From: Candidatus Latescibacterota bacterium
Lineage (GTDB): Bacteria > Latescibacterota > UBA2968 > UBA8231
Reading direction: 5' to 3'
Length of the DNA: 64,000 nt
NCBI GenBank assembly: GCA_965206595.1
Contig: OZ242214.1
Coordinates: forward strand, 6,720,001 to 6,784,000
Positions 2,300 to 61,957 of the stretch are shown piece by piece (the stretch's first letter is position 1; the number at the start of each line of letters is the position of its first letter). A program made the translations under genes and the position numbers. The notes below the pieces were generated by a model. It made no database searches. It was given only the letters and a program-made list of their open reading frames with translations, and was not told the DNA's origin.

Positions 2300-3715
2300 C
2301 TATCGGCCGGGCGCGGACTCCCCGAGAAGGGCGTTCCAGCGCTCGGCATACCGCCCGAGGGCGGGATCGTCGAAGGGGTCGACGCGGACCAGGCTCAGCG
2401 GCCACGTCGCGGTTTCCTCCTCCCAGACAGCCAGCATGCCGGCGCCGACCGCGGTGCCTTCGGTCTGGTGGTTGGCGAAACAGCTTTCGCAGCCTGCCAG
2501 GGCGGCGAGCAGGCGGCAGTAGAGCTCGTTGTTTACGAAGCCGCCGTCGATGACGAGGTCTCCGTCCGCCTCGAGCAGGCACAGACTGGTCGCCGTCATC
2601 AGCGCCGCGTACAGGGTCGCCCGCGCGATGATCTCGCCGTCCGTCTGCGGCTCCGGTCCCCAGGTCGTACCGGCGCGCCCCATGAACGGGCCCCCCGGCG
2701 CGAACGAGGGCAGCAGGAAGCTCCCCCCGGCGAGCACCCTGCGCAGATCGGCCTCGGTGCAGGACCTGCTCCCGGTTCCGGCGCTCAGGATCTCGAACTC
2801 GCGCCCCCCCATGTAGCGGGCCGCTGGGACCGGGCGCCCCATCAGGTCGACGAGGGCGAGGGTGTCGCGCCCTTCGTCCAGCCTGTCCAGGGGAAGGCGC
2901 GGGCTGAACATCACCACCCAGGTTCCGGTCGAGACCAGGCTGAAGGGCCGGGAACGGCCGCGCAGGTAGAGGCTGTACGCGGCGTTGCTGTCGTGGATGC
3001 CGCAGTGGACGCGGCAGTGCGTCGATAGTCCGGTGCGCCGCGCGATCCCGGGGCGAATCTGCCCCAGGGCCGCGTGCGCCGGCCGGATGGGGGGAAGCAG
3101 CCTCTCCCATCCTTGCCGCTGCACGAGGGAGGAATAGCGCCGCTCCCGGGGATTCCACAGGTGGCCGTGGCAGCCGATCGAGGTCAGCTCGCTCGCCGAA
3201 ACCCCGGACAGCCGCCAGGACCAGTACTGCGGGTAGGCGAGGACGCGGTCGGCGCGGGCGAACTCCCGTGGGAAAGCGCGCTGCAGCCAGAACAGCTGGC
3301 GGCCGAGGTTCATCCCCGCCGGCAGGGTTGGGCAGCAGGTCTCGGCGAACGCGGGAGCGGCCTCGGCGAAGGCTTTGGCGGTCGCCTCCGGCGGCTCGGC
3401 CTCGTAGTCGAGAATCGGCAGGGCGAGCCGGTCGCCGTTCATGAGGGCGGCGGTACAGCCATGGGTCGTCGGCACGATGGCGTCGATCTCGTAGCTCGCC
3501 GAGAACCCGGCCGCGGCCTGCAACAGCCAACTCCAGACCTTTTCGGTGTCGAGATGGGGAAAGGGCGGACCGTCGAGACTGCGGTTTTCGAGCCGCTCCA
3601 CGGCGAGAATCTCCCCGCCCTTTGCCATCACCAGGAGCTTGACGTTGGTCTTGCCCACGTCGAGAACAAGCGTTGCGGAGGGTTTGTGGGATCGCACTTC
3701 GATCGCAGCCGGCAT
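2300..3715 (-). CDS. FGGY-family carbohydrate kinase (fuculokinase/rhamnulokinase-like)
   Basis: LDVGKTNVK phosphate loop, GIHDSNA, VSTGTW, IDGGF motifs. Confidence 0.85.
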   Translation of the reverse strand: MPAAIEVRSHKPSATLVLDVGKTNVKLLVMAKGGEILAVERLENRSLDGPPFPHLDTEKVWSWLLQAAAGFSASYEIDAIVPTTHGCTAALMNGDRLALPILDYEAEPPEATAKAFAEAAPAFAETCCPTLPAGMNLGRQLFWLQRAFPREFARADRVLAYPQYWSWRLSGVSASELTSIGCHGHLWNPRERRYSSLVQRQGWERLLPPIRPAHAALGQIRPGIARRTGLSTHCRVHCGIHDSNAAYSLYLRGRSRPFSLVSTGTWVVMFSPRLPLDRLDEGRDTLALVDLMGRPVPAARYMGGREFEILSAGTGSRSCTEADLRRVLAGGSFLLPSFAPGGPFMGRAGTTWGPEPQTDGEIIARATLYAALMTATSLCLLEADGDLVIDGGFVNNELYCRLLAALAGCESCFANHQTEGTAVGAGMLAVWEEETATWPLSLVRVDPFDDPALGRYAERWNALLGESAPGR

Positions 3716-3765
3716 GGCGGCAGATTAAAGGGGATCGGTTACCGGGCAATCAAGCGGAATGAGCG

Positions 3766-4644
3766 CTACTGCGCCGTGGCGATCAGCATGGCGCCGGCGA
3801 AGATTACGATCGACGCCGCCAGGCGGATTCCCTGGAAACGCTCGCCGAGCAGCTTCCCGCCCATCACCACCGCCATGACGACGCTGATCTGCCTGAGGCC
3901 GACGATGTAGCTGACCCGTTCCAGCTGAAAGGCATAGAGGATGAGCACGTAGCTGGTCAGCCCGAACATACCGTTGAGAATCACCGCACGCCGGTTCTGC
4001 CGCCACTCGTTCCCGATGGCGCTCCTGTCCTTGGTGAAGGCGACGTACCCGCTCAGCATGAGGACGGTGACCAGGAAGTAGCTGCAGATGAAAACCACCG
4101 GGTGGATGATGGCAACGGCGAGCTTGTCGACGATGGAATAGGCGGCGACGGTCAGCATCGTCAGAACCGCCAACTGCAGGTGTCTCTCCTTCCAGTGCGC
4201 GGCCACAGGCTCGATGAAGGCGGACGGACTGATCCCCTTCAAGTTGATCGAATACGCTCCCAGCACCACCAGGGCGATGCCGACCCCGCCCCGCCAGGAG
4301 ACGTATTCCCCGAGGAAGAAGATGGCGACCAGCAGGACGAGCGCCGGGGCCGAGCGCATGATCGGGTAGACCTGGGAAAAATCGCCCCCTTCGTACGCCT
4401 TGGTGTAGAAGATGACGTAGAAGAAGTGGATGACACCGGAGAGAGTGCCGTAGAGCAGGACCGCGGCGACATCTACATCGGTGTAGATCGATAGGTACGC
4501 CGCTGCCGGAAGGTAAAGCGTCATACCGACGAGCAGTCCCAGCCAGGCGAAGATCTGCTTGTCGATCGCCCGCTTTACCAGGAGGTTCCGCAGGGCGTGA
4601 AGAAACGCCGACCCCAGTGCCAGCGCGACCGCGAGGAGTTCCAT
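3766..4644 (-). CDS. DMT/EamA family transporter
   Basis: About 10 hydrophobic helices in two repeats; GDFSQVYPI and LGE motifs. Confidence 0.9.
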   Translation of the reverse strand: MELLAVALALGSAFLHALRNLLVKRAIDKQIFAWLGLLVGMTLYLPAAAYLSIYTDVDVAAVLLYGTLSGVIHFFYVIFYTKAYEGGDFSQVYPIMRSAPALVLLVAIFFLGEYVSWRGGVGIALVVLGAYSINLKGISPSAFIEPVAAHWKERHLQLAVLTMLTVAAYSIVDKLAVAIIHPVVFICSYFLVTVLMLSGYVAFTKDRSAIGNEWRQNRRAVILNGMFGLTSYVLILYAFQLERVSYIVGLRQISVVMAVVMGGKLLGERFQGIRLAASIVIFAGAMLIATAQ

Positions 4645-4865
4645 CTATTTATTCTCCTTCTCCCTGGAATTTACAGCGCGGCATATCGGCTGCCCGGCAC
4701 TTTTTTGAAAAAACGGGATCTGGGAATCCTTGACAGACGGGGACGAACCATGAGGCCGAACCGAAGCTCTCTCTCAGGTGCGGTCAAAACGCATGCCATG
4801 AAACAAGACTCGGGTACGCAGGCTGCGGATGCCCATTCGGGGGGATCACAATGCGGAATATATAG

Positions 4866-5759
4866 ATGACAATCGGTCTGCTTGCAGTCAATGCATCCTT
4901 GTGTTCAGCACACGTCGGGGACCGCGTCGTGCCCGTATTCGAGATTTCGGACACGGCGCTCTCCGAGATAGACATTCATGACGGAGAGATAGGCGACTGG
5001 CTCGCCGTGATTGGCGAACCTTCCCTGACAGGCCTCGACCTGACCGCAGATGTCAGCTATGGAGAGGAGTACGATCCAAGCGACCTCGACTTCCGCATAT
5101 GGTTGGCGTGGCACCAAGGGCTCAACCGGATCTATATAGCGGCGGAAGGAGTCGACGATGTAATGGTGGACCGGGATGATGATGGTGAATGGTATTGGGA
5201 CGGCGTGATCGGATTGGAGATCGACGGCGATCATTCCGGGGGAATCTATGTTTTCAAAGATGGAGACGAGAGCCAGTGGCAGGGGGTCCAGCATTTTGTT
5301 GGCGGGCCCCTCGGCTACTTGGAAACCGCCGTAAACACACCATCCACGGTGCGGCCCGAGTACTGTACAATTGGCAGCCCCGACATCACGTGTTGGTTCA
5401 CAGTGCCTCCCTTTGCCGACGTGGGCGGGGCAACCTATGGCGAAAACCCGACTGTCTGGATGACGGAGATGTACGTTACCCCTTTCGACTGGTTGGTTGA
5501 CGACGACAGGGACGAAACGGTGATCTCGGAACTGCGGCCGGATGGTATAGTCATATCAGGGTTAAGGGTGGCGGTGCACGATGACGATGACCCTCAGAAC
5601 CGGGGTGGTGACGCAGCCTTTCTTTTCCCGGCCATAGACCACGATTCCGCGCATGGGCCGGATCAGTTCGCCGACGGCCTGCTTGTGCCTGTTGGTGGAA
5701 GGGATAGCGCCAAAGAGTCCGTCTCGTGGGGACGCATCAAAGCGTCGCTACAGCCCTGA
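4866..5759 (+). CDS. secreted protein, CBM9/DOMON-like, with C-terminal SWGRIK motif
   Basis: Signal-like N-terminus, IDIHDGEIGDW and IDGDHSGG motifs, ends ESVSWGRIKASLQP. Confidence 0.65.
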   Translation: MTIGLLAVNASLCSAHVGDRVVPVFEISDTALSEIDIHDGEIGDWLAVIGEPSLTGLDLTADVSYGEEYDPSDLDFRIWLAWHQGLNRIYIAAEGVDDVMVDRDDDGEWYWDGVIGLEIDGDHSGGIYVFKDGDESQWQGVQHFVGGPLGYLETAVNTPSTVRPEYCTIGSPDITCWFTVPPFADVGGATYGENPTVWMTEMYVTPFDWLVDDDRDETVISELRPDGIVISGLRVAVHDDDDPQNRGGDAAFLFPAIDHDSAHGPDQFADGLLVPVGGRDSAKESVSWGRIKASLQP

Positions 5760-5935
5760 CACTACAACCCTCGCGTCCCCTTAGCGTCTGGTTGGTTGGC
5801 CCGCAGGAACAGTTCGGAAGGCCCCACTGCTTCTCATCCCACCAGCCCAGGCATCGATCCCCACCAAATCGTTTTCAGCCCTTGGGAGGCGTCTCGCTCC
5901 TGAAGCTTGCGGCCGCCTGTGGACCCATTGGGTAC

Positions 5936-5968
5936 AAAAAGAAAGGAGGCCCTTGAAAGGACCTCCTC
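5936..5968 (-). terminator. intrinsic terminator after tRNA-Asp
   Basis: Minus strand GGAGGTCCT-TTCA-AGGGCCTCC followed by TTTCTTTTT. Confidence 0.8.
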
Positions 5969-5973
5969 GAAAC

Positions 5974-6052
5974 TGGCGGGATCGACGGGACTCGAACCCG
6001 CGACCTCCGGCGTGACAGGCCGGCGTTCTAAACCAAACTGAACTACGATCCC
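5974..6052 (-). tRNA. tRNA-Asp(GTC)
   Basis: Cloverleaf: GGGATCG/CGATCCC acceptor stem, anticodon loop CTGTCAC, TTCGAGT T-loop, encoded CCA. Confidence 0.97.
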
Positions 6053-51730: not shown

Positions 51731-56158
<4,428 letters not shown>

Positions 56159-56343
56159 TCTTGCAAGGCAACTCGTTGTGTAGCAATACGAAAAAGGGGG
56201 GATGGCGCGAACCGTATCCAACTCCTGTTGTATAGAGTCCCTTTCGCCACACCGCGGCTCAAATCTCGTTTAACTTCAATCAGTTAAGCGGTGCGCGAAC
56301 CTCCCCGTGTTTACCTGACCGCTTATGGTTCGCACCATCTTTC
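56159..56343 (-). promoter_or_regulatory. CRISPR leader
   Basis: Lower-GC segment between cas2 and the first repeat; GCGAACC...GGTTCGC inverted motif at 56295-56333. Confidence 0.8.
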
Positions 56344-56634
56344 TCAGACGATCAATGTTCCGTTCAGGTCGGCAGTTGGCTTAGCCCCAACGTGCTCTAC
56401 ACGCCTCTTCCAATTTGCACCGAGGAAATAATACCTGAGACTGTCGGTTTCTGGATTGATGATGTCCTCAAGCTGCACCTTCAGGGCGGCCCATTGCGCC
56501 GGCTCCACCTCGATCTCAAACACTGAAAACTGCACTCGTTGTCCAAAATCGCGGCACCTCTTAGCGACACGTCTTAACCGGCGTACGCCGCCATCGGATG
56601 TCGTCGAGACATCGTACGTAACGAGAACCATCAT
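56344..56634 (-). CDS. cas2: CRISPR-associated Cas2
   Basis: VLVTYDV, RRLRRVAK.C, QRVQFSVFE, DSLRYY. Confidence 0.96.
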   Translation of the reverse strand: MMVLVTYDVSTTSDGGVRRLRRVAKRCRDFGQRVQFSVFEIEVEPAQWAALKVQLEDIINPETDSLRYYFLGANWKRRVEHVGAKPTADLNGTLIV

Positions 56635-56689: not shown

Positions 56690-57724
56690 CTATTTCCATA
56701 ACCAAGGCGGGTGAGCGTCTAAGTCGCCTCGAAGGTGCCGAGCCAGTAACTGCGCTTGTAGGTACGCGACCAATCCGAGGGGTGCCTGTTCCCCAAGAAA
56801 AGGATGACGACGCTCTACGCGCTTTCGCTCCTGCCAAGCACTGAGAACTGTCTTGCGAGCGCCGTCGCTCATTAAGACGCTGCCGCCTTCTCGGGTTTGG
56901 AAGTCTCTGGTGCGTACTTGCCGACGATTGATTAGCGATAGCGCGAGCCGGTCAGCCAAGACTGGCCGCAGCTCTTCCATAAGATCTAGCGCGAGACTCG
57001 GACGGCCGGGCCGATCTCTATGAAAGAAGCCTACGGCCGGATCCAAGCCCACGCTTTCGGCGGCCGATCTGCAATCGTGGACGAGAAGGGTATAGAGAAA
57101 CGAGAGCAGGGCATTCATCGGGTCACGCGGCGGCCGGCGGTTGCGGCCGGCGAATGCCATCTCTGGGTCGGGTACGCGGATCAGGTGGCCAAAGACGGAG
57201 AAATAGAGCCGTGCGGCCTCGCCTTCAAAACCGCGCAGCCTATCGATACTGTCGTGGCCGTCGCTGATGCGTTGCACAATCTGCCGAAGGCGATTCGTCG
57301 CGGCGGACATGGCTTCGCGGCCAGAAGGCTCAAGCTCGTCGCCGTAATCTCGCTGCGCTCTTTGCAGGACGCTTCTCTGATTGGAGATCTTGCCGACGAG
57401 AATGCTGCGGACGATCTCTTCTGGGTCGTCGCTGGCTCTATATTGGGCGCGACGCAGCAGCACGTTGCCAGAGACCGGTCCCTCGACCCGGGCTTGGAAT
57501 CGGCCGAATCGACTCAAGAGTACAAAGACGATGCCACCGGCGGCACATGCCTGGATCAGGGATGGAGATATATAGATGCTACCAAACACCACTACGGATC
57601 CCAGCATATGGAAGGGCACCCTTATACGTTCTTCATCCTCAATTTTCGCGACCAGATTCTCGCCGTCCTTGGTCAGACGTGCTTCAGGCGTAGTAACGTA
57701 TAGCGTATTAAGCAACCGCCTCAT
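56690..57724 (-). CDS. cas1: CRISPR-associated Cas1 (I-C)
   Basis: LNTLYVT, GNVLLRRAQY, LRGFEG, RNRRPPRDP.NALLSFLY, SLALDLMEE. Confidence 0.97.
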   Translation of the reverse strand: MRRLLNTLYVTTPEARLTKDGENLVAKIEDEERIRVPFHMLGSVVVFGSIYISPSLIQACAAGGIVFVLLSRFGRFQARVEGPVSGNVLLRRAQYRASDDPEEIVRSILVGKISNQRSVLQRAQRDYGDELEPSGREAMSAATNRLRQIVQRISDGHDSIDRLRGFEGEAARLYFSVFGHLIRVPDPEMAFAGRNRRPPRDPMNALLSFLYTLLVHDCRSAAESVGLDPAVGFFHRDRPGRPSLALDLMEELRPVLADRLALSLINRRQVRTRDFQTREGGSVLMSDGARKTVLSAWQERKRVERRHPFLGEQAPLGLVAYLQAQLLARHLRGDLDAHPPWLWK

Positions 57725-58419
57725 GGGTTTTCTCCAGGCTCGGCAAGGTGCGATGCCAGGGTACGCATTCGCCATGCGAGAACCGACCGGTCCATCGCCT
57801 TCGGGCGACACTGTTCGAACAGAGAACACCCACCGCACTTGGCCGCTTCGTATTCGGCTGGGGGTGTGCGGTTTTGCGCAAAGAGTGTCGCTACCTGCAC
57901 GACTGTCGTCTCGGTCAGGGTGCGGAGCTCGGCGTCAAAAGACACTTCCTTCCGCCGTTTGGTTTGGCCGTAGTAAAAGGCCCCCATCGGCACTTCTGTA
58001 CCGGTCATTTCCTCAAGGCACAGTGCTTGGGCGCAGAGTTGCACCTCGTCGGCGCGATGCACTTTGGCCTTGCCGCGTTTGAACTCGACCGGGAACGGGG
58101 TCGGACCTGTCCGGCTTTCGCGGAACTCGACCATATCGGCGACGCCTGTAAGATTGAGCCGAAGGCTGTAGATCGGGAGCGACATTACTTGGCGCACACC
58201 TGCCCTGCGCCGACGCCCTGCTTCGTCAATGACTTGATGCAGTACTCGACCTTCAGCGGTAAACCGATTTTCCTCCCAAAGCCGTTCCAAGTGGATCAGA
58301 GCGCATTGCCTCATACAGTACACCGCATGTTGCAGTGCCGACACGGGTATCGGCTCCATTCCATGGTCCGATCCATCCCCCTCCCTAGGGGGGGACCGCC
58401 CGAACTGCGCTTCACTCAT
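57721..58419 (-). CDS. cas4: CRISPR-associated Cas4; start may be 58425, 58419 or 58359
   Basis: SALQH..YC.RQ, GVADMVE, PVEFKRG, QLCAQALCLE, C..CSL...C. Confidence 0.95.
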   Translation of the reverse strand: MSEAQFGRSPPREGDGSDHGMEPIPVSALQHAVYCMRQCALIHLERLWEENRFTAEGRVLHQVIDEAGRRRRAGVRQVMSLPIYSLRLNLTGVADMVEFRESRTGPTPFPVEFKRGKAKVHRADEVQLCAQALCLEEMTGTEVPMGAFYYGQTKRRKEVSFDAELRTLTETTVVQVATLFAQNRTPPAEYEAAKCGGCSLFEQCRPKAMDRSVLAWRMRTLASHLAEPGENP

Positions 58420-58468
58420 CGTCATCTCCGCTCCGTTTGTTTCATTCCGTGCCCCGCACAGGGGCGTC
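58366..58468 (-). CRISPR. degenerate repeat - 42 nt - degenerate repeat mini-array at the cas7/cas4 junction
   Basis: GACGCCCCTGTGCGGGGCACGGAATGAAAC (58468-58439) and GTCCCCCCCTAGGGAGGGGGATGGATCGGAC (58396-58366) both resemble the array repeat. Confidence 0.65.
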
Positions 58469-59412
58469 TATGTGATCGGCTCGACGACCTCGACATTTGC
58501 CGGCATATCGTCCAAGTCGAGCTCTACGCGATAGTCAGCAAAGCTGCGGGCAGGCGGCAGGGTGCCTTCGCTACCATCCGCTTCTGCACGCTGCACACTC
58601 ACCCGCTCAAAGAGCCTATGCGCGGGCGCGTTGCCCAAGGCACTGGCGTGCTTAAAGGCAATGAGCCGACGAGCAACCATTTCGCCGCGGGCGGCCGAGT
58701 GGTCGTGCTCGAACATCTGCGTCAAGGCATTCCAGAGGACGTCGAGATCGTCCGGCGAAAAGCCGGTGCGTTCGGCGAGCTTGGCGGAGACAAAGCCGTG
58801 CGCCCGATACAGCCCGTAGGGCACAATATGTTTGCGACCCATGGTGCGGTGCTCGGTCCGCTCGTCGCCCGCGTTTTCATCGCTGGCATCCTCGCGCTCC
58901 TGCTTTTCGTTTTCGTTGGTCGCTGCCATGCGCGTAATGGACACTTCGAGTGGCACGATCTGATCGATGGACCGCGCAAAGGTCATCTGTACCGGCCCGC
59001 GGACCTGGCCGCAGTTGATGCCGGTACTCATTACCGCACCGAAGGTGCGCACATCAAAGAAATTGTCGCACATGAAGCCGCGCAGTTTATCCATCTCCTC
59101 GTCGCTTTGAGGGCTTAGTTTCTTGCTGCTCTCGACCTTCTTGTCGTTGGGGCGCACAACCCGATACGCCTTCCGGTGTTGCTCGTTGAGCAGAGCACCT
59201 TCCTGGACGTAGATCGCGTAGCCGGACTCGTCGCCCTTAGCCAGTTCGACGAAATTGCGCACCTTGCGCTTGAGGCAGACATCCGTGACCAATCCTTGGT
59301 TCGTTTCCGGGTCGAGGCGCGGGAGGTTTCCTGCATCCGGGTCGCCGTTGGGGTTGCCGTTGTTGACGTCGAACAGATAGACGAAGTCGTAGCGATGGTT
59401 GAGTGCGGTCAT
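58468..59412 (-). CDS. cas7: Cas7/Csd2 (I-C)
   Basis: NGNPNGDPDAGNLPR, TDVCLKRKVRN, FFDVRTFGAV, GQVRGPVQ, YGLYRAHG, HDHSAARG. Confidence 0.97.
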   Translation of the reverse strand: MTALNHRYDFVYLFDVNNGNPNGDPDAGNLPRLDPETNQGLVTDVCLKRKVRNFVELAKGDESGYAIYVQEGALLNEQHRKAYRVVRPNDKKVESSKKLSPQSDEEMDKLRGFMCDNFFDVRTFGAVMSTGINCGQVRGPVQMTFARSIDQIVPLEVSITRMAATNENEKQEREDASDENAGDERTEHRTMGRKHIVPYGLYRAHGFVSAKLAERTGFSPDDLDVLWNALTQMFEHDHSAARGEMVARRLIAFKHASALGNAPAHRLFERVSVQRAEADGSEGTLPPARSFADYRVELDLDDMPANVEVVEPIT

Positions 59413-59819
59413 TCTTCGTTCTCCTTTTCTTCTTTGCCCTCCTCACTGGGGGCGGACTTGGTGTAGAAATCGTTTTTCTGGTGGTAGTAGCCGATGGCGA
59501 AGAGGGCCTGACGCTCCATCGTCAGCGTCGCCACGAACAGCTCATCGGGCGTGGCGCACCCATAGATCTGGGCGATTGCGTTGTCGATATAGCGATGAGT
59601 TGCAGGCCGGTCTTTCCGCAGACGCGACAGGTGGTTCATGGCGTTGCGTTGCAGGAGGGGAAATACAGACCGCGGCGTCGCCGAAGCCGCCCCGTAGTAC
59701 TTATCGCATATCGTGGCGTTGACCTTGCCACCGAGGGCCTGCGTTTGCGCGTACTCAAAGCAGGCAAATAGCCGGCCCAGCAAATAGCCGGGGTCGGCGT
59801 TTGTGGGATCGAGGGACAC
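59409..59819 (-). CDS. cas11: Cas11c small subunit from an internal in-frame start in cas8c
   Basis: AAGGAG SD before in-frame GTG (VSLDPTN..GYLLGRLFA); 136 aa. Confidence 0.75.
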   Translation of the reverse strand: MSLDPTNADPGYLLGRLFACFEYAQTQALGGKVNATICDKYYGAASATPRSVFPLLQRNAMNHLSRLRKDRPATHRYIDNAIAQIYGCATPDELFVATLTMERQALFAIGYYHQKNDFYTKSAPSEEGKEEKENEE

Positions 59820-61232
59820 GATAAAATTCTCCTTTGTTAAATGGTCATCCTTGCGCCTATTTCGGCAGACCACGGCTTTGAGTAAGGCTACGCGCAGGTC
59901 CGTTATGGCCTTATCCGACCGCAGTCGCATGAGAATCGTGGATAACAACGTCTGCGGATAACGGCGACCTGTCAGGATGGCGCGTAGCATATCCCCAGCG
60001 AGTTGGGGAGGGATATGTTCGTATCGGTTTTTTACCTTCGTCGTGGCGGTCTCAAGTAGGCAGCGCCGAACGCTTGGCTGCTCTTGGCGCGGCCGCGGGT
60101 CGAGGCGCATATCCCGATAGTGCCAGAGGATATGCTCGGCAAACGTCGCAAAGTCGTCCTCCAGCCAGAAGCGAATCGAAATACGCGCTGCATTGGGGGC
60201 CAATCCCAGCACGTGGAAGCGCACACCTTGGGGCAAATCCGGGCGGATTTCCTCCATGGGACGGCCCCTTGCCATTTTTTCGAGAATGGGCTTGATGGCC
60301 TGCTCGCTTGTCGCGTCGTCTGTGTCATTGGTGTCATTGAAGGCGAAGGAAAATATTGCCTCGCTTTGCGCCACTGCTTCTGCCTCCGAGCCATCGGCCC
60401 AGAATACAGTCGAGGCGTCACCGAGCTGCACTTTGTTCTCGTTGGTACGGAGAAGGTGGTTGAGCACAGTCGTATAGGCGGCGGCAGCGTCCTCGCTTAC
60501 GGGTGCATTATCGCCCTGTTTGTGCCCATAAGACTCAAAGGCGTCGAGATTGAAAGAGACGATGGATGCGCCGGAAGACTGTGCGCCACGCACCCCCTTG
60601 ATCGCGGGATGCAGCCGGGCGATAGGGGATCTCTCTCCGGTCACCAAGCAAACGGCTTTGCCCGGTTCGTGATCCTGATTCATCTGCAAGGCCCAGAGTT
60701 GACGTGCGGCCTCGCGGTCGTGTATGAAGTTGTGCTCTCCCTCCAGCCGGAACACCACATTGGCCCCCTTCATTTCGTCTGGCCAGCCACGCGCGTCGAA
60801 GTACTCTGGCTTCCACCATTGCAAGAAACGATAATAAGCCACAAGTCCTGCGTCGCTTTCGTTTTGCAGAGCAAAGTGCCTGTTCTGAAAAGCCTCGTAC
60901 TGATTCTCTACCCGCTCGGCACGCCGCTCTCTGGTGTCTGGGGTCTCGCCTTCCAAGTCTTCCATTGCACCAAGCGAATACGATGCCTTGTCCCAAAGGA
61001 AGTTCGGCACAATTTTGACCGTCCGCTTCTCTGGTCGCGGAACTGAGTGTCGCGGGGCTACGGGTTTCTTCCCTGAGTGGTCTCGTAGGTCCACAGGCGG
61101 ACCATCGGACTGGCCATCGGCCTTCAGGACGACGCAATAGTCGATCCGCTCATTGGAATAGCCAATCGGCGGCACTTTGTTCTCTGTTGCGAGCCGGTGA
61201 TAGGCCCGCTCAAGAGAAGCCAGAATGCTCAT
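59409..61232 (-). CDS. cas8c: Cas8c/Csd1
   Basis: PNFLWDK, CLVTGE, HPAIKGV, IVSFN..AFESYG, LGLAPNAARISIR, GYLLGRLFA. Confidence 0.96.
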   Translation of the reverse strand: MSILASLERAYHRLATENKVPPIGYSNERIDYCVVLKADGQSDGPPVDLRDHSGKKPVAPRHSVPRPEKRTVKIVPNFLWDKASYSLGAMEDLEGETPDTRERRAERVENQYEAFQNRHFALQNESDAGLVAYYRFLQWWKPEYFDARGWPDEMKGANVVFRLEGEHNFIHDREAARQLWALQMNQDHEPGKAVCLVTGERSPIARLHPAIKGVRGAQSSGASIVSFNLDAFESYGHKQGDNAPVSEDAAAAYTTVLNHLLRTNENKVQLGDASTVFWADGSEAEAVAQSEAIFSFAFNDTNDTDDATSEQAIKPILEKMARGRPMEEIRPDLPQGVRFHVLGLAPNAARISIRFWLEDDFATFAEHILWHYRDMRLDPRPRQEQPSVRRCLLETATTKVKNRYEHIPPQLAGDMLRAILTGRRYPQTLLSTILMRLRSDKAITDLRVALLKAVVCRNRRKDDHLTKENFIVSLDPTNADPGYLLGRLFACFEYAQTQALGGKVNATICDKYYGAASATPRSVFPLLQRNAMNHLSRLRKDRPATHRYIDNAIAQIYGCATPDELFVATLTMERQALFAIGYYHQKNDFYTKSAPSEEGKEEKENEE

Positions 61233-61891
61233 CGCAGTACCTCCGGCGAATTGGGTGAAGGAATTTCGACAACCCCCTGTTTCATTTCGGCGCGAAAGAA
61301 AAGCGGCTGTCGCTCGTTTTCGTGGTCAATATCGTAGAGCATCCAGCCCAAGTCACGGCTTTCATCAATCGCTGGCGGTAGGTCGTCTTCGTGCTCAATG
61401 AGTGTGTAGTCTGCAGCAAATTCTCGCGTTCCAAGACAGGGCTGGTGAAAGCACTGCCCGTTCCTAGCGCGGCGATTGAAGATGTCGAGGTGTTTGCCCA
61501 CGTTATCGCTTTCGCCCGCTTCGTCCGTCATGTCAAAGTGCGCTTCAATGGCGTACTCAACGTTGACCAAGACGGTTGCGGCGCGTTGCTGGCGATCATC
61601 CTCAACTTTGGTGTAGAGGGTCTCAATGGAGCCCCTGTTTTTCGCCGTGCGGACAGACCCCATGGGAATTTTCTTGCCGACTTCGTTGCGCCGGATCGAC
61701 TGGAACCGAATCGGCTTGAGAACGTGAAGGCGGTCAATGCGCCAGACGATGTCCGGCTTCCAGTGAATGGCCTCCAAGATGCCGCGTGCCGCCGAAGGCG
61801 TCATTACGTCGTAGGATACGCGCTCGACTTTCATTTCCGGCCGAGTGAAACAGGCGTATTCGCCTCCCACGCGCAGACGTATTCCGAACAT
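61229..61891 (-). CDS. cas5: Cas5d (I-C crRNA processing endoribonuclease)
   Basis: ACFTRPEMKVERVSY.V.TPSAARGILEAIHWKP, IRRNEV, PCLGTREF. Confidence 0.97.
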   Translation of the reverse strand: MFGIRLRVGGEYACFTRPEMKVERVSYDVMTPSAARGILEAIHWKPDIVWRIDRLHVLKPIRFQSIRRNEVGKKIPMGSVRTAKNRGSIETLYTKVEDDRQQRAATVLVNVEYAIEAHFDMTDEAGESDNVGKHLDIFNRRARNGQCFHQPCLGTREFAADYTLIEHEDDLPPAIDESRDLGWMLYDIDHENERQPLFFRAEMKQGVVEIPSPNSPEVLR

Positions 61892-61921: not shown

Positions 61922-61949
61922 ATTTCAATACCCTCCGCACGGGGGGCAC
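61922..61949 (-). repeat. solitary degenerate CRISPR repeat between cas3 and cas5
   Basis: GTGCCCCCCGTGCGGAGGGTATTGAAAT versus the array repeat; hairpin and TTGAAA tail retained. Confidence 0.75.
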
Positions 61950-61957
61950 CCCTACCA

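Follow-up and report, generated by a model that had tools for sequence, protein, structure and literature searches.

A degenerate repeat-spacer-repeat unit at the cas7c-cas4 junction of a Latescibacterota type I-C CRISPR-Cas locus

The type I-C locus and its cas7c-cas4 junction

The window considered here, the 64,000 nucleotides (nt) between positions 6,720,001 and 6,784,000 of contig OZ242214.1 (assembly GCA_965206595.1) of a Candidatus Latescibacterota bacterium, lies at a complete type I-C CRISPR-Cas system, whose genes follow one another on the minus strand in the order cas3, cas5c, cas8c, cas7c, cas4, cas1c, cas2 and then an adjacent CRISPR array; coordinates are those of the window unless a contig is named. 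Between cas7c and cas4 lies a degenerate repeat-spacer-repeat unit, with a proximal pseudo-repeat psiR1 and a distal pseudo-repeat psiR2, which is probably, at somewhat better than even chances, the fossil of a mini-array that cas4 has taken over for its translation initiation and N-terminal leader. The array, by its orientation, sets which strand counts as sense for the pseudo-repeats. G000 denotes the genome of the window (7.05 Mb, a single contig), and other L and G numbers denote the related loci and genomes compared with it. The unit consists of three parts:

58468-58439, minus strand: psiR1, a degenerate repeat (stem of 5 bp, pentaloop, 12-nt tail with GAAAC at its end)
58438-58397, minus strand: the former spacer, 42 nt, assigned to the cas4 5' untranslated region and first codons
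58396-58366, minus strand: psiR2, a degenerate distal repeat in frame with the cas4 open reading frame (ORF) of 234 amino acids (aa), at residues about 10-20

The cas7c stop codon TAG (58470-58468) abuts psiR1, whose GC stem pairs 58465-58461 with 58455-58451 (hairpin 58465-58451) and is followed by ACGGAATG, without a T run. The former spacer holds GGAG at 58434-58431 and again at 58429-58426, and ATG at 58425-58423 and 58419-58417. A preliminary description of this DNA had noticed the cas7 stop running into a hairpin with a handle-like tail, the 42 nt with GGAG and the two ATGs between two repeat mimics, and the second mimic in frame within the Cas4 N-terminus, and all of these features are present as it described them. 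Two repeat homologues, alike in orientation and with a spacer-sized 42 nt between them, have the arrangement of a mini-array.

Folded alone, psiR1 forms its stem and pentaloop at -10.5 kcal/mol (z -1.65), as compared to 7 bp and a pentaloop in the array repeat. The 141-nt junction as a whole folds no more stably than its shuffles (z 0.14), its minimum-energy fold is without the psiR1 stem, and in the fold predicted for G000 the TGG of psiR2 lies buried within an extended stem. Scans of 58000-59000 found neither a sigma-70-like promoter nor an intrinsic terminator-like site, and the psiR1 hairpin was rejected as an intrinsic terminator on the basis of the empty scan and the missing T run. Weak evidence that the cas operon mRNA includes the junction comes from one RNA-library contig spanning 58411-58969, from cas7 through psiR1 and unbroken at psiR1, which derives from a relative and may reflect DNA carry-over. 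The metatranscriptome evidence consists of assembled contigs, which cannot show RNA ends; contigs of two studies end between 58382-58410 (X16) and near 58375-58395 (X20), and C/G runs or strain mixtures can break assemblies.

The surrounding genes and array are the following:

61958 to about 64179, minus strand: cas3, Cas3 domains
61229-61891, minus strand: cas5c
59409-61232, minus strand: cas8c
58468-59412, minus strand: cas7c (Csd2) ORF, TIGR02589, E 2.3e-114
57721-58425, minus strand: cas4, 234-aa ORF, TIGR00372 aligned to residues 26-208
56690-57724, minus strand: cas1c, 382-aa ORF, TIGR03640 aligned from residue 42 (position of Met39 computed from the ORF coordinates)
56344-56634, minus strand: cas2
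about 56158 down to about 51700, minus strand: CRISPR array, 32-nt repeat in at least 64 copies, repeat end ATTGAAAC

Cas7c, Cas8c, Cas5c, Cas1c, Cas4 and Cas2 all exceed the cut-offs of NCBIfam equivalog or exception models and the Cas3 domains are present, so that gene set and adjacent array are together those of a type I-C locus. The cas1c ATG at 57724 overlaps the cas4 stop codon as ATGA, an overlap through which the two genes are likely coupled in translation.

The array itself is irregular in places. At its leader-proximal end (55870-56160, minus strand) the repeat tail is partly duplicated right behind the first repeat, and two "spacers" of just 10 and 7 nt stand between full repeats; a block of 231 nt, three to four units, occurs twice with 100% identity (52033-52263 and 52840-53070), and one repeat-spacer unit is duplicated in tandem (53375-53443 and 53444-53512). 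A second CRISPR array of G000 lies outside the window at G000:C1:2114574-2115656, with at least 16 copies of a 37-nt repeat at a period of about 72; this repeat differs from the I-C repeat but likewise ends GGATTGAAAC, and resembles psiR1 no better. Since a second cas7-like gene (about 2118311, G000:C1) adjoins this array, G000 has two systems with similar handles.

Descent and decay of the unit among relatives

In G000 alone the likeness of psiR1 and psiR2 to the cognate repeat is marginal. A covariance model built from 51 distinct I-C repeats finds in 7.8 kb of the window only the psiR1 hairpin, at 9.1 bits and E 0.71; in L016 it gives the psiR1 hairpin E 0.46 and a single repeat behind cas3 25.8 bits and E 1.8e-5, and in neither place does it match psiR2. 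An nhmmer search of the 7-Mb genome with a repeat profile gave no significant match outside the arrays, and neither pseudo-repeat is among the best 40 of its 313 non-array matches. When the cognate repeat was aligned semi-globally to both strands of 19 kb in G000, psiR1 tied for rank 4 among non-array places and psiR2 fell outside the top 8. The same alignment over about 13 kb each of the related loci L015, L016 and L017 gives psiR1 and psiR2 scores of 14-18 against an ordinary background of 7-10, with psiR2 at 16-18, and the two occupy non-array ranks 1-2 in L016 and L017 and 3-4 in L015. It follows from these top-ranked matches that the unit descends from a genuine repeat-spacer-repeat.

The handle and processing determinants of the repeat are, however, not kept in psiR1, which alters two positions that are invariant in the 51 repeats (A for G21 and A for T26) in addition to having 5 bp of stem rather than 7. 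Another repeat-like GC hairpin lies in the last cas8c codons (59425-59456, minus strand), just before the cas7c Shine-Dalgarno (SD) motif; it is kept in L015, L016 and L017, where it scores 13 against the repeat and ranks 3-5 among non-array places, and may be due to chance in a GC-rich gene.

Relatives were gathered in two ways. A DNA search of 41 related genomes yielded four loci 88-96% identical over 1 kb, and a Cas7c scan with one genome per species yielded nine Latescibacterota loci at 83-99% Cas7c identity and a further 71 loci at 63-72%, mostly of Alphaproteobacteria. The nine Latescibacterota loci together with G000 and G004 form the clade set of 11 loci. All 11 have a homologous cas7c-cas4 junction of 79-144 nt, as compared to a junction of at most about 62 nt in 55 of 64 other I-C loci, a few of whose boundaries are extrapolated from partial alignments. 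A metagenome scan with Cas4 kept 80 loci, none of them a close relative (best identity 67%), whose junctions are short and ordinary and in which no repeat-like sequence was seen by eye.

Within the clade the pseudo-repeats evolve at or above the neutral rate, as judged from four-fold sites. Pooled over the 21 pairs of seven indel-free loci, divergence is 0.262 in psiR1 and 0.233 in psiR2, against four-fold-site values of 0.215 in the last 600 nt of cas7 and 0.225 in the first 600 nt of core cas4; it falls to 0.194 in the SD-bearing stretch and to 0.156, the lowest value of the junction, in the first 28 coding nt of the leader. The element thus shows no conservation beyond neutral in related loci. 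It has also been damaged outright: psiR1 is deleted in L018, whose array has 56 repeats, its handle is gone in L019 (41 repeats), and it is barely recognisable in L022 and L023. Arrays of 25-56 repeats persist in these four loci (5-56 when L021 is included). In L021 an insertion of 36 nt, bearing another repeat-like piece, lies inside psiR1, and G004, L019 and L020 have TG or TA in place of the GG behind the cut site. On the evidence of these alignments, what is conserved is the translation signal, an SD motif with an in-frame ATG, rather than the repeats.

Repeat-like sequences occur at this junction in other I-C loci as well. In two Aurantimonadaceae loci (Aurantimonas/Aureimonas; L034 5357-5503 and L090 6948-7065) an independent sense-strand repeat-like unit, unrelated to that of the clade, directly follows cas7, with a spacer nearly identical between the two genera. 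Neither locus contains a TTC- or TTT-flanked target for it (best 9/15), and these units were rejected as a model for guide function on that ground. Antisense repeat-like sequence is found at the junction in L044 (by alignment scan) and in L094, L077 and L069 (by eye). Together these six loci make the junction seem prone to catching repeats. Elsewhere in the operon, L016 (genome G020) is about 1.2 kb longer than other loci between the cas5c start and the cas7c start (about 2306-6001), which suggests an insertion, possibly an insertion sequence (IS) element, within cas5c-cas8c.

The start of cas4 and the competing accounts of the unit

Throughout the clade an initiation signal stands within the former spacer. 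GGAG precedes the first in-frame ATG by 5-7 nt in seven of the 11 loci and by 11 nt in L020, while L018, L019 and G004 have a variant SD motif instead. The position of the in-frame ATG at 58359 is a Thr codon (ACG/ACA) in L022 and L023, which have no other in-frame start, so that the upstream ATG is the only start available to them. Indels upstream of this ATG measure -11, -5, -3 and +36 nt, whereas those downstream measure -18, -12 and -3 nt, that is, all coding-part indels are multiples of three. The leader lacks a stop codon in all 11 loci, each of which also has the two Pro codons of psiR2, varying at third positions only; variation in psiR2 follows codon periodicity rather than helix pairing. 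The leader, 20-22 aa long, spans 58425-58360 and is followed by the internal ATG at 58359. The Cas4 family profile begins at ORF residue 26, and in other I-C loci the short form of Cas4 is matched by tblastn from residues 1-4 onwards. Taken together, the start codons, the frame of the indels and the Pro-Pro pair argue that translation of cas4 begins within the former spacer and takes in psiR2 as a loose leader. The start of cas4 is most likely the ATG at 58425 or 58419, one of which would then be used in G000 itself. The proposal of the preliminary description that the "spacer" is the cas4 initiation region accordingly holds up across the relatives, in the form of an SD motif, or a close variant of it, and an in-frame ATG.

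A history that accommodates these features would begin with a repeat-spacer-repeat unit that lodged between cas7c and cas4 in the ancestor of the Latescibacterota I-C clade and then degenerated as a CRISPR unit. The spacer of the unit would have been co-opted to supply cas4 with the GGAG Shine-Dalgarno motif and the ATG at 58425 or 58419, and its former distal repeat would be read through as codons of a poorly constrained Cas4 leader of 16-22 aa. The piece would be carried in the cas operon mRNA, with cas1 following by ATGA coupling, and the pseudo-repeats would presumably no longer matter to Cas5c or Cascade.

Several observations weigh against this history. The leader has almost no codon-position bias, with 10/6/11 variable columns at the three codon positions as compared to 27/13/101 in core cas4, and its translation is argued from frame, starts and Pro-Pro only. 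Both pseudo-repeats in G000, L015, L016 and L017 keep a hairpin followed by YGG, the trinucleotide read by the Bacillus halodurans Cas5c (PMC8524198), and the Cas5c of this locus is an ordinary close homologue of solved pre-crRNA (precursor CRISPR RNA) processing enzymes (E 1e-85). Finally, the psiR1 hairpin is paired in 28 of 30 cells of the alignment (six distinct sequences), with three of its five pairs changed on both sides; values as high as those of psiR1 pairing and covariation are reached by 3-5 of 500 shuffles and the both-sides-changed pairs by 19 of 500, and slid controls pair in 41-59%. These statistics nevertheless give only a weak hint of structural constraint, because all of the changes are C to T or G to A and U pairs with both A and G.

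The YGG geometry bears most directly on an alternative in which Cas5c or the assembling Cascade cuts the mRNA at the 3' bases of psiR1 and psiR2, removing or masking the cas4 SD and start, so that plentiful free Cas5c or Cascade would lower expression of cas4 and the coupled cas1, with release of a crRNA-sized RNA. Cas5c is reported to cut after nucleotide 21, at the stem base, and to read mainly the cut site and the nucleotides downstream of it, where some Cas5c enzymes accept variation. For the B. halodurans enzyme U22-G23-G24 are the main determinants, and alterations of the stem base or the 3' tail also affect it; the S. mutans enzyme accepts more variation (PMC8524198). In the four loci named, the psiR1 hairpin is followed by one unpaired base, CGG and a tail ending GAAAC, and the psiR2 hairpin by TGGAT; genuine I-C repeats, too, can have a C at position 22. 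For I-C single-repeat units, cleavage of the pseudo-repeat by Cas5c is described both in vivo and in vitro (bioRxiv 2024.12.27.630466), and the changes on both sides of the psiR1 stem and the ATGA coupling of cas1 to cas4 are also what such a device would have. Nonetheless, the pseudo-repeats evolve neutrally or faster and the repeat model fails on both; psiR1 has the shortened stem, an unpaired base at the cut site and the changes at G21 and T26; and the GG after the cut site is broken in three loci. Moreover, psiR1 is deleted or decayed in L018, L019, L022 and L023 despite their large arrays. Only 61% of the psiR2 helix cells are paired across relatives, variation there is codon-like, and the TGG of psiR2 is buried in the G000 fold. 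Cutting of this kind is accordingly considered unlikely. The preliminary description had put forward processing at both pseudo-repeats as a means of silencing cas4; as a selected device this finds no support in view of the neutral rate, the failure of the repeat model, the losses in L018 and L019 and the codon periodicity of psiR2, and silencing by excision is disfavoured by comparison of the loci.

A related possibility is an RNA-level feedback linking interference to adaptation, in which Cas5c or the assembling Cascade would bind or cut psiR1 and load Cas7 over the cas4 SD and start. Such loading would throttle cas4 and the ATGA-coupled cas1 in proportion to the amount of crRNA-less effector, without a DNA target, and the cas3-cas5c pseudo-repeat described below and possibly that at the cas8c end would be processing points of the same messenger. 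This reading is held to be improbable.

The pairing of psiR1 could alternatively mean that its hairpin is a generic RNA element, a 3' stabiliser or a partial barrier to exonuclease or read-through, that acts independently of Cas5c at the border between interference and adaptation genes, the rest of the unit being a relic. The hairpin comes directly after the cas7 stop, and its pairing in 28 of 30 cells contrasts with the decaying handle of L019 and L020; a GC hairpin also lies behind cas7 in the unrelated locus L083, and CreT RNAs are described as having hairpins whose sole role is RNA protection (bioRxiv 10.64898/2026.06.02.729485). However, it has no T run and the terminator scan is empty, it is absent in L018, L022 and L023, the junction fold is unexceptional and omits it, and the pairing statistics come from six sequences with wobble-tolerant transitions. 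A generic role is therefore also doubtful, and slightly more so than cutting by Cas5c.

The remaining alternative makes the unit a guide RNA gene. In it cas4 would start at 58359, and a CreR-like RNA or crRNA-like RNA (crlRNA) would direct Cascade to a partially matching promoter flanked by a protospacer-adjacent motif (PAM), repressing cas or other genes. Mini-arrays regulate cas promoters in types I-B, I-E, I-F and V-A and are predicted to do so in I-C (10.1101/2023.03.10.532045, PMC10120712), and relatives of the present locus carry such an element behind cas3. Targets were sought by scoring spacer positions 1-18 minus every sixth, which gives 15 scored positions, 10 of them in the seed. 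TTC is given as the I-C PAM (PMC8406640), as is TTA (bioRxiv 2024.12.27.630466). The 7.05-Mb genome contains no TTC-, TTA- or TTT-flanked site with 10 of 10 seed positions, and three TTC sites with nine of 10. With any preceding triplet there are 21 perfect seeds outside the unit itself, where a rough estimate of chance gives about 13. Four of the 21 are CTC-preceded copies of one IS-type transposase gene (open frame of about 510 aa; G000:C1 5962152, 2094850, 991411 and 3853741), whose motif shares an 11-nt seed with the spacer; with CTC in front and no pairing past position 11, they were treated as chance and rejected as targets.

The relatives offer no target either. An any-PAM scan of the 19-kb loci of five genomes, the only scan to include G004, found best sites at chance level and at differing places, and a TTC-restricted scan of six related loci, G004 and L021 being left out, gave best matches of 8-10/15 without a common place. 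The gap of about 25 nt before cas3 has no seed match. Seed positions 4, 5 and 9 of the spacer vary among relatives and no co-varying site was found. The PAM-flanked seed target expected of a crlRNA gene is thus missing from these searches, while the same scoring applied to the single-repeat unit of L018, L019 and L020 picks out its target at 12-13/15, with the next best site at 8-9. Since the upstream ATG is moreover the only start in L022 and L023 and the unit has no promoter of its own that could be found, a guide function is very improbable. The suggestion of the preliminary description that a TTC-flanked seed match might be found in the genome, especially upstream of cas3, was thus not borne out, and its alternative of a start at 58359 with a CreR-like guide is contradicted by the start codons of the relatives as well as by the absent flanked match.

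The unit accordingly fails the three functional hallmarks for which it was tested, an intact handle, a target and conservation, and looks like a recycled relic rather than an active regulatory RNA.

Units behind cas3, known mini-arrays and the meaning of the junction

A third pseudo-repeat of G000 lies in the 66-nt intergenic region between cas3 and cas5c, a gap flagged by the same semi-global alignment:

61922-61953, minus strand: psiR0, a degenerate repeat, remnant of a single-repeat unit

The corresponding unit is well preserved in three loci of the clade. In L018 (about 3410-3560), L019 (about 3370-3545) and L020 (about 3355-3525) a near-perfect single repeat directly follows the cas3 stop and is succeeded by a spacer-like stretch, an intrinsic terminator (15 pairs and a T run) and a promoter TTGACA-16-TATATT. 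The 12-13/15 match to its spacer is a TTC-flanked site on the -10 box of the cas5c promoter, and L018 differs at spacer position 1 and target position 1 alike. To judge from these matches, the unit looks like a CreR-type autorepressor of the I-C system. It has the form of the I-C single-repeat units found between cas3 and cas5c (bioRxiv 2024.12.27.630466) and has the cas5c promoter as its target, in the manner of a CreR (10.1101/2023.03.10.532045). L016 retains a homologous single-repeat unit intact, but its -10 box and target are deleted, and only a stump of the cas3-side repeat is left in G000, L015, L017 and G004. Units of this kind have thus been gained and lost within the clade, all three pseudo-repeats of G000 being probable remnants.

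Among the described systems close to the junction unit are the I-C crlRNA units (bioRxiv 2024.12.27.630466), with which it shares the subtype, sense pseudo-repeats within the cas operon and a hairpin with an 11-nt handle-like tail; those linked to Gabija also have both a psiR1 and a psiR2. As that preprint describes them, the crlRNA units lie before cas5c, where they control inserted defence genes, keep their handle, yield RNAs seen by small-RNA sequencing and pair with a TTC- or TTA-flanked promoter target, whereas the junction unit lies between cas7c and cas4, has degenerate handles, has no target that could be found and has its spacer and psiR2 in the start and frame of cas4. With the CreR/CreA mini-CRISPRs (10.1101/2023.03.10.532045) it shares a degenerate repeat-spacer-repeat in a cas intergenic region, but CreR is described as repressing cas promoters through a PAM-flanked partial match, of which none was found here. 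The I-C examples of that preprint are confined to its Figure S7.

According to Shmakov et al. (PMC10120712), 34% of 1206 I-C loci contain a repeat-like sequence and 7% a mini-array, and some of the mini-arrays are probably degraded and without function. The junction unit fits their description of a mini-array in that the proximal repeat is better kept than the distal and the spacer lies within 20-60 bp, although the main text of that paper mentions neither an I-C example nor a cas7-cas4 position, nor any unit that overlaps a start codon or coding sequence. In the literature covered, which did not extend to the supplementary lists of PMC10120712 and of the CreR preprint, no mini-array overlapping a cas4 start was found. 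The unit is set apart from known ones, as far as the alignments tell, by its place between cas7c and cas4 and by an SD, start and first codons of cas4 that are apparently built from it.

There is a further resemblance to the CreT toxins, which include a proline-codon toxin (10.64898/2026.06.02.729485), in the SD, ATG, two Pro codons and GC hairpin with pseudo-repeats nearby. CreT as described there is, however, a mini-ORF with a stop directly after the critical codons and a repressed promoter of its own, whereas the junction frame runs into cas4. A CreT-type toxin was rejected because the frame has no stop codon and continues into cas4 in all 11 loci; the promoter scan was empty as well.

Should RNA-level feedback by Cas5c or Cascade prove true after all, it would be a new kind of cas regulation, exerted on cas4 and cas1. 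If instead the unit is the co-opted fossil that we favour, a stray repeat-spacer-repeat became the ribosome-binding site, the start codon and a coding part of an adaptation gene, and CRISPR loci would recycle their own parts. This would call for caution where a scan takes the repeat-like sequences of cas loci for regulators.

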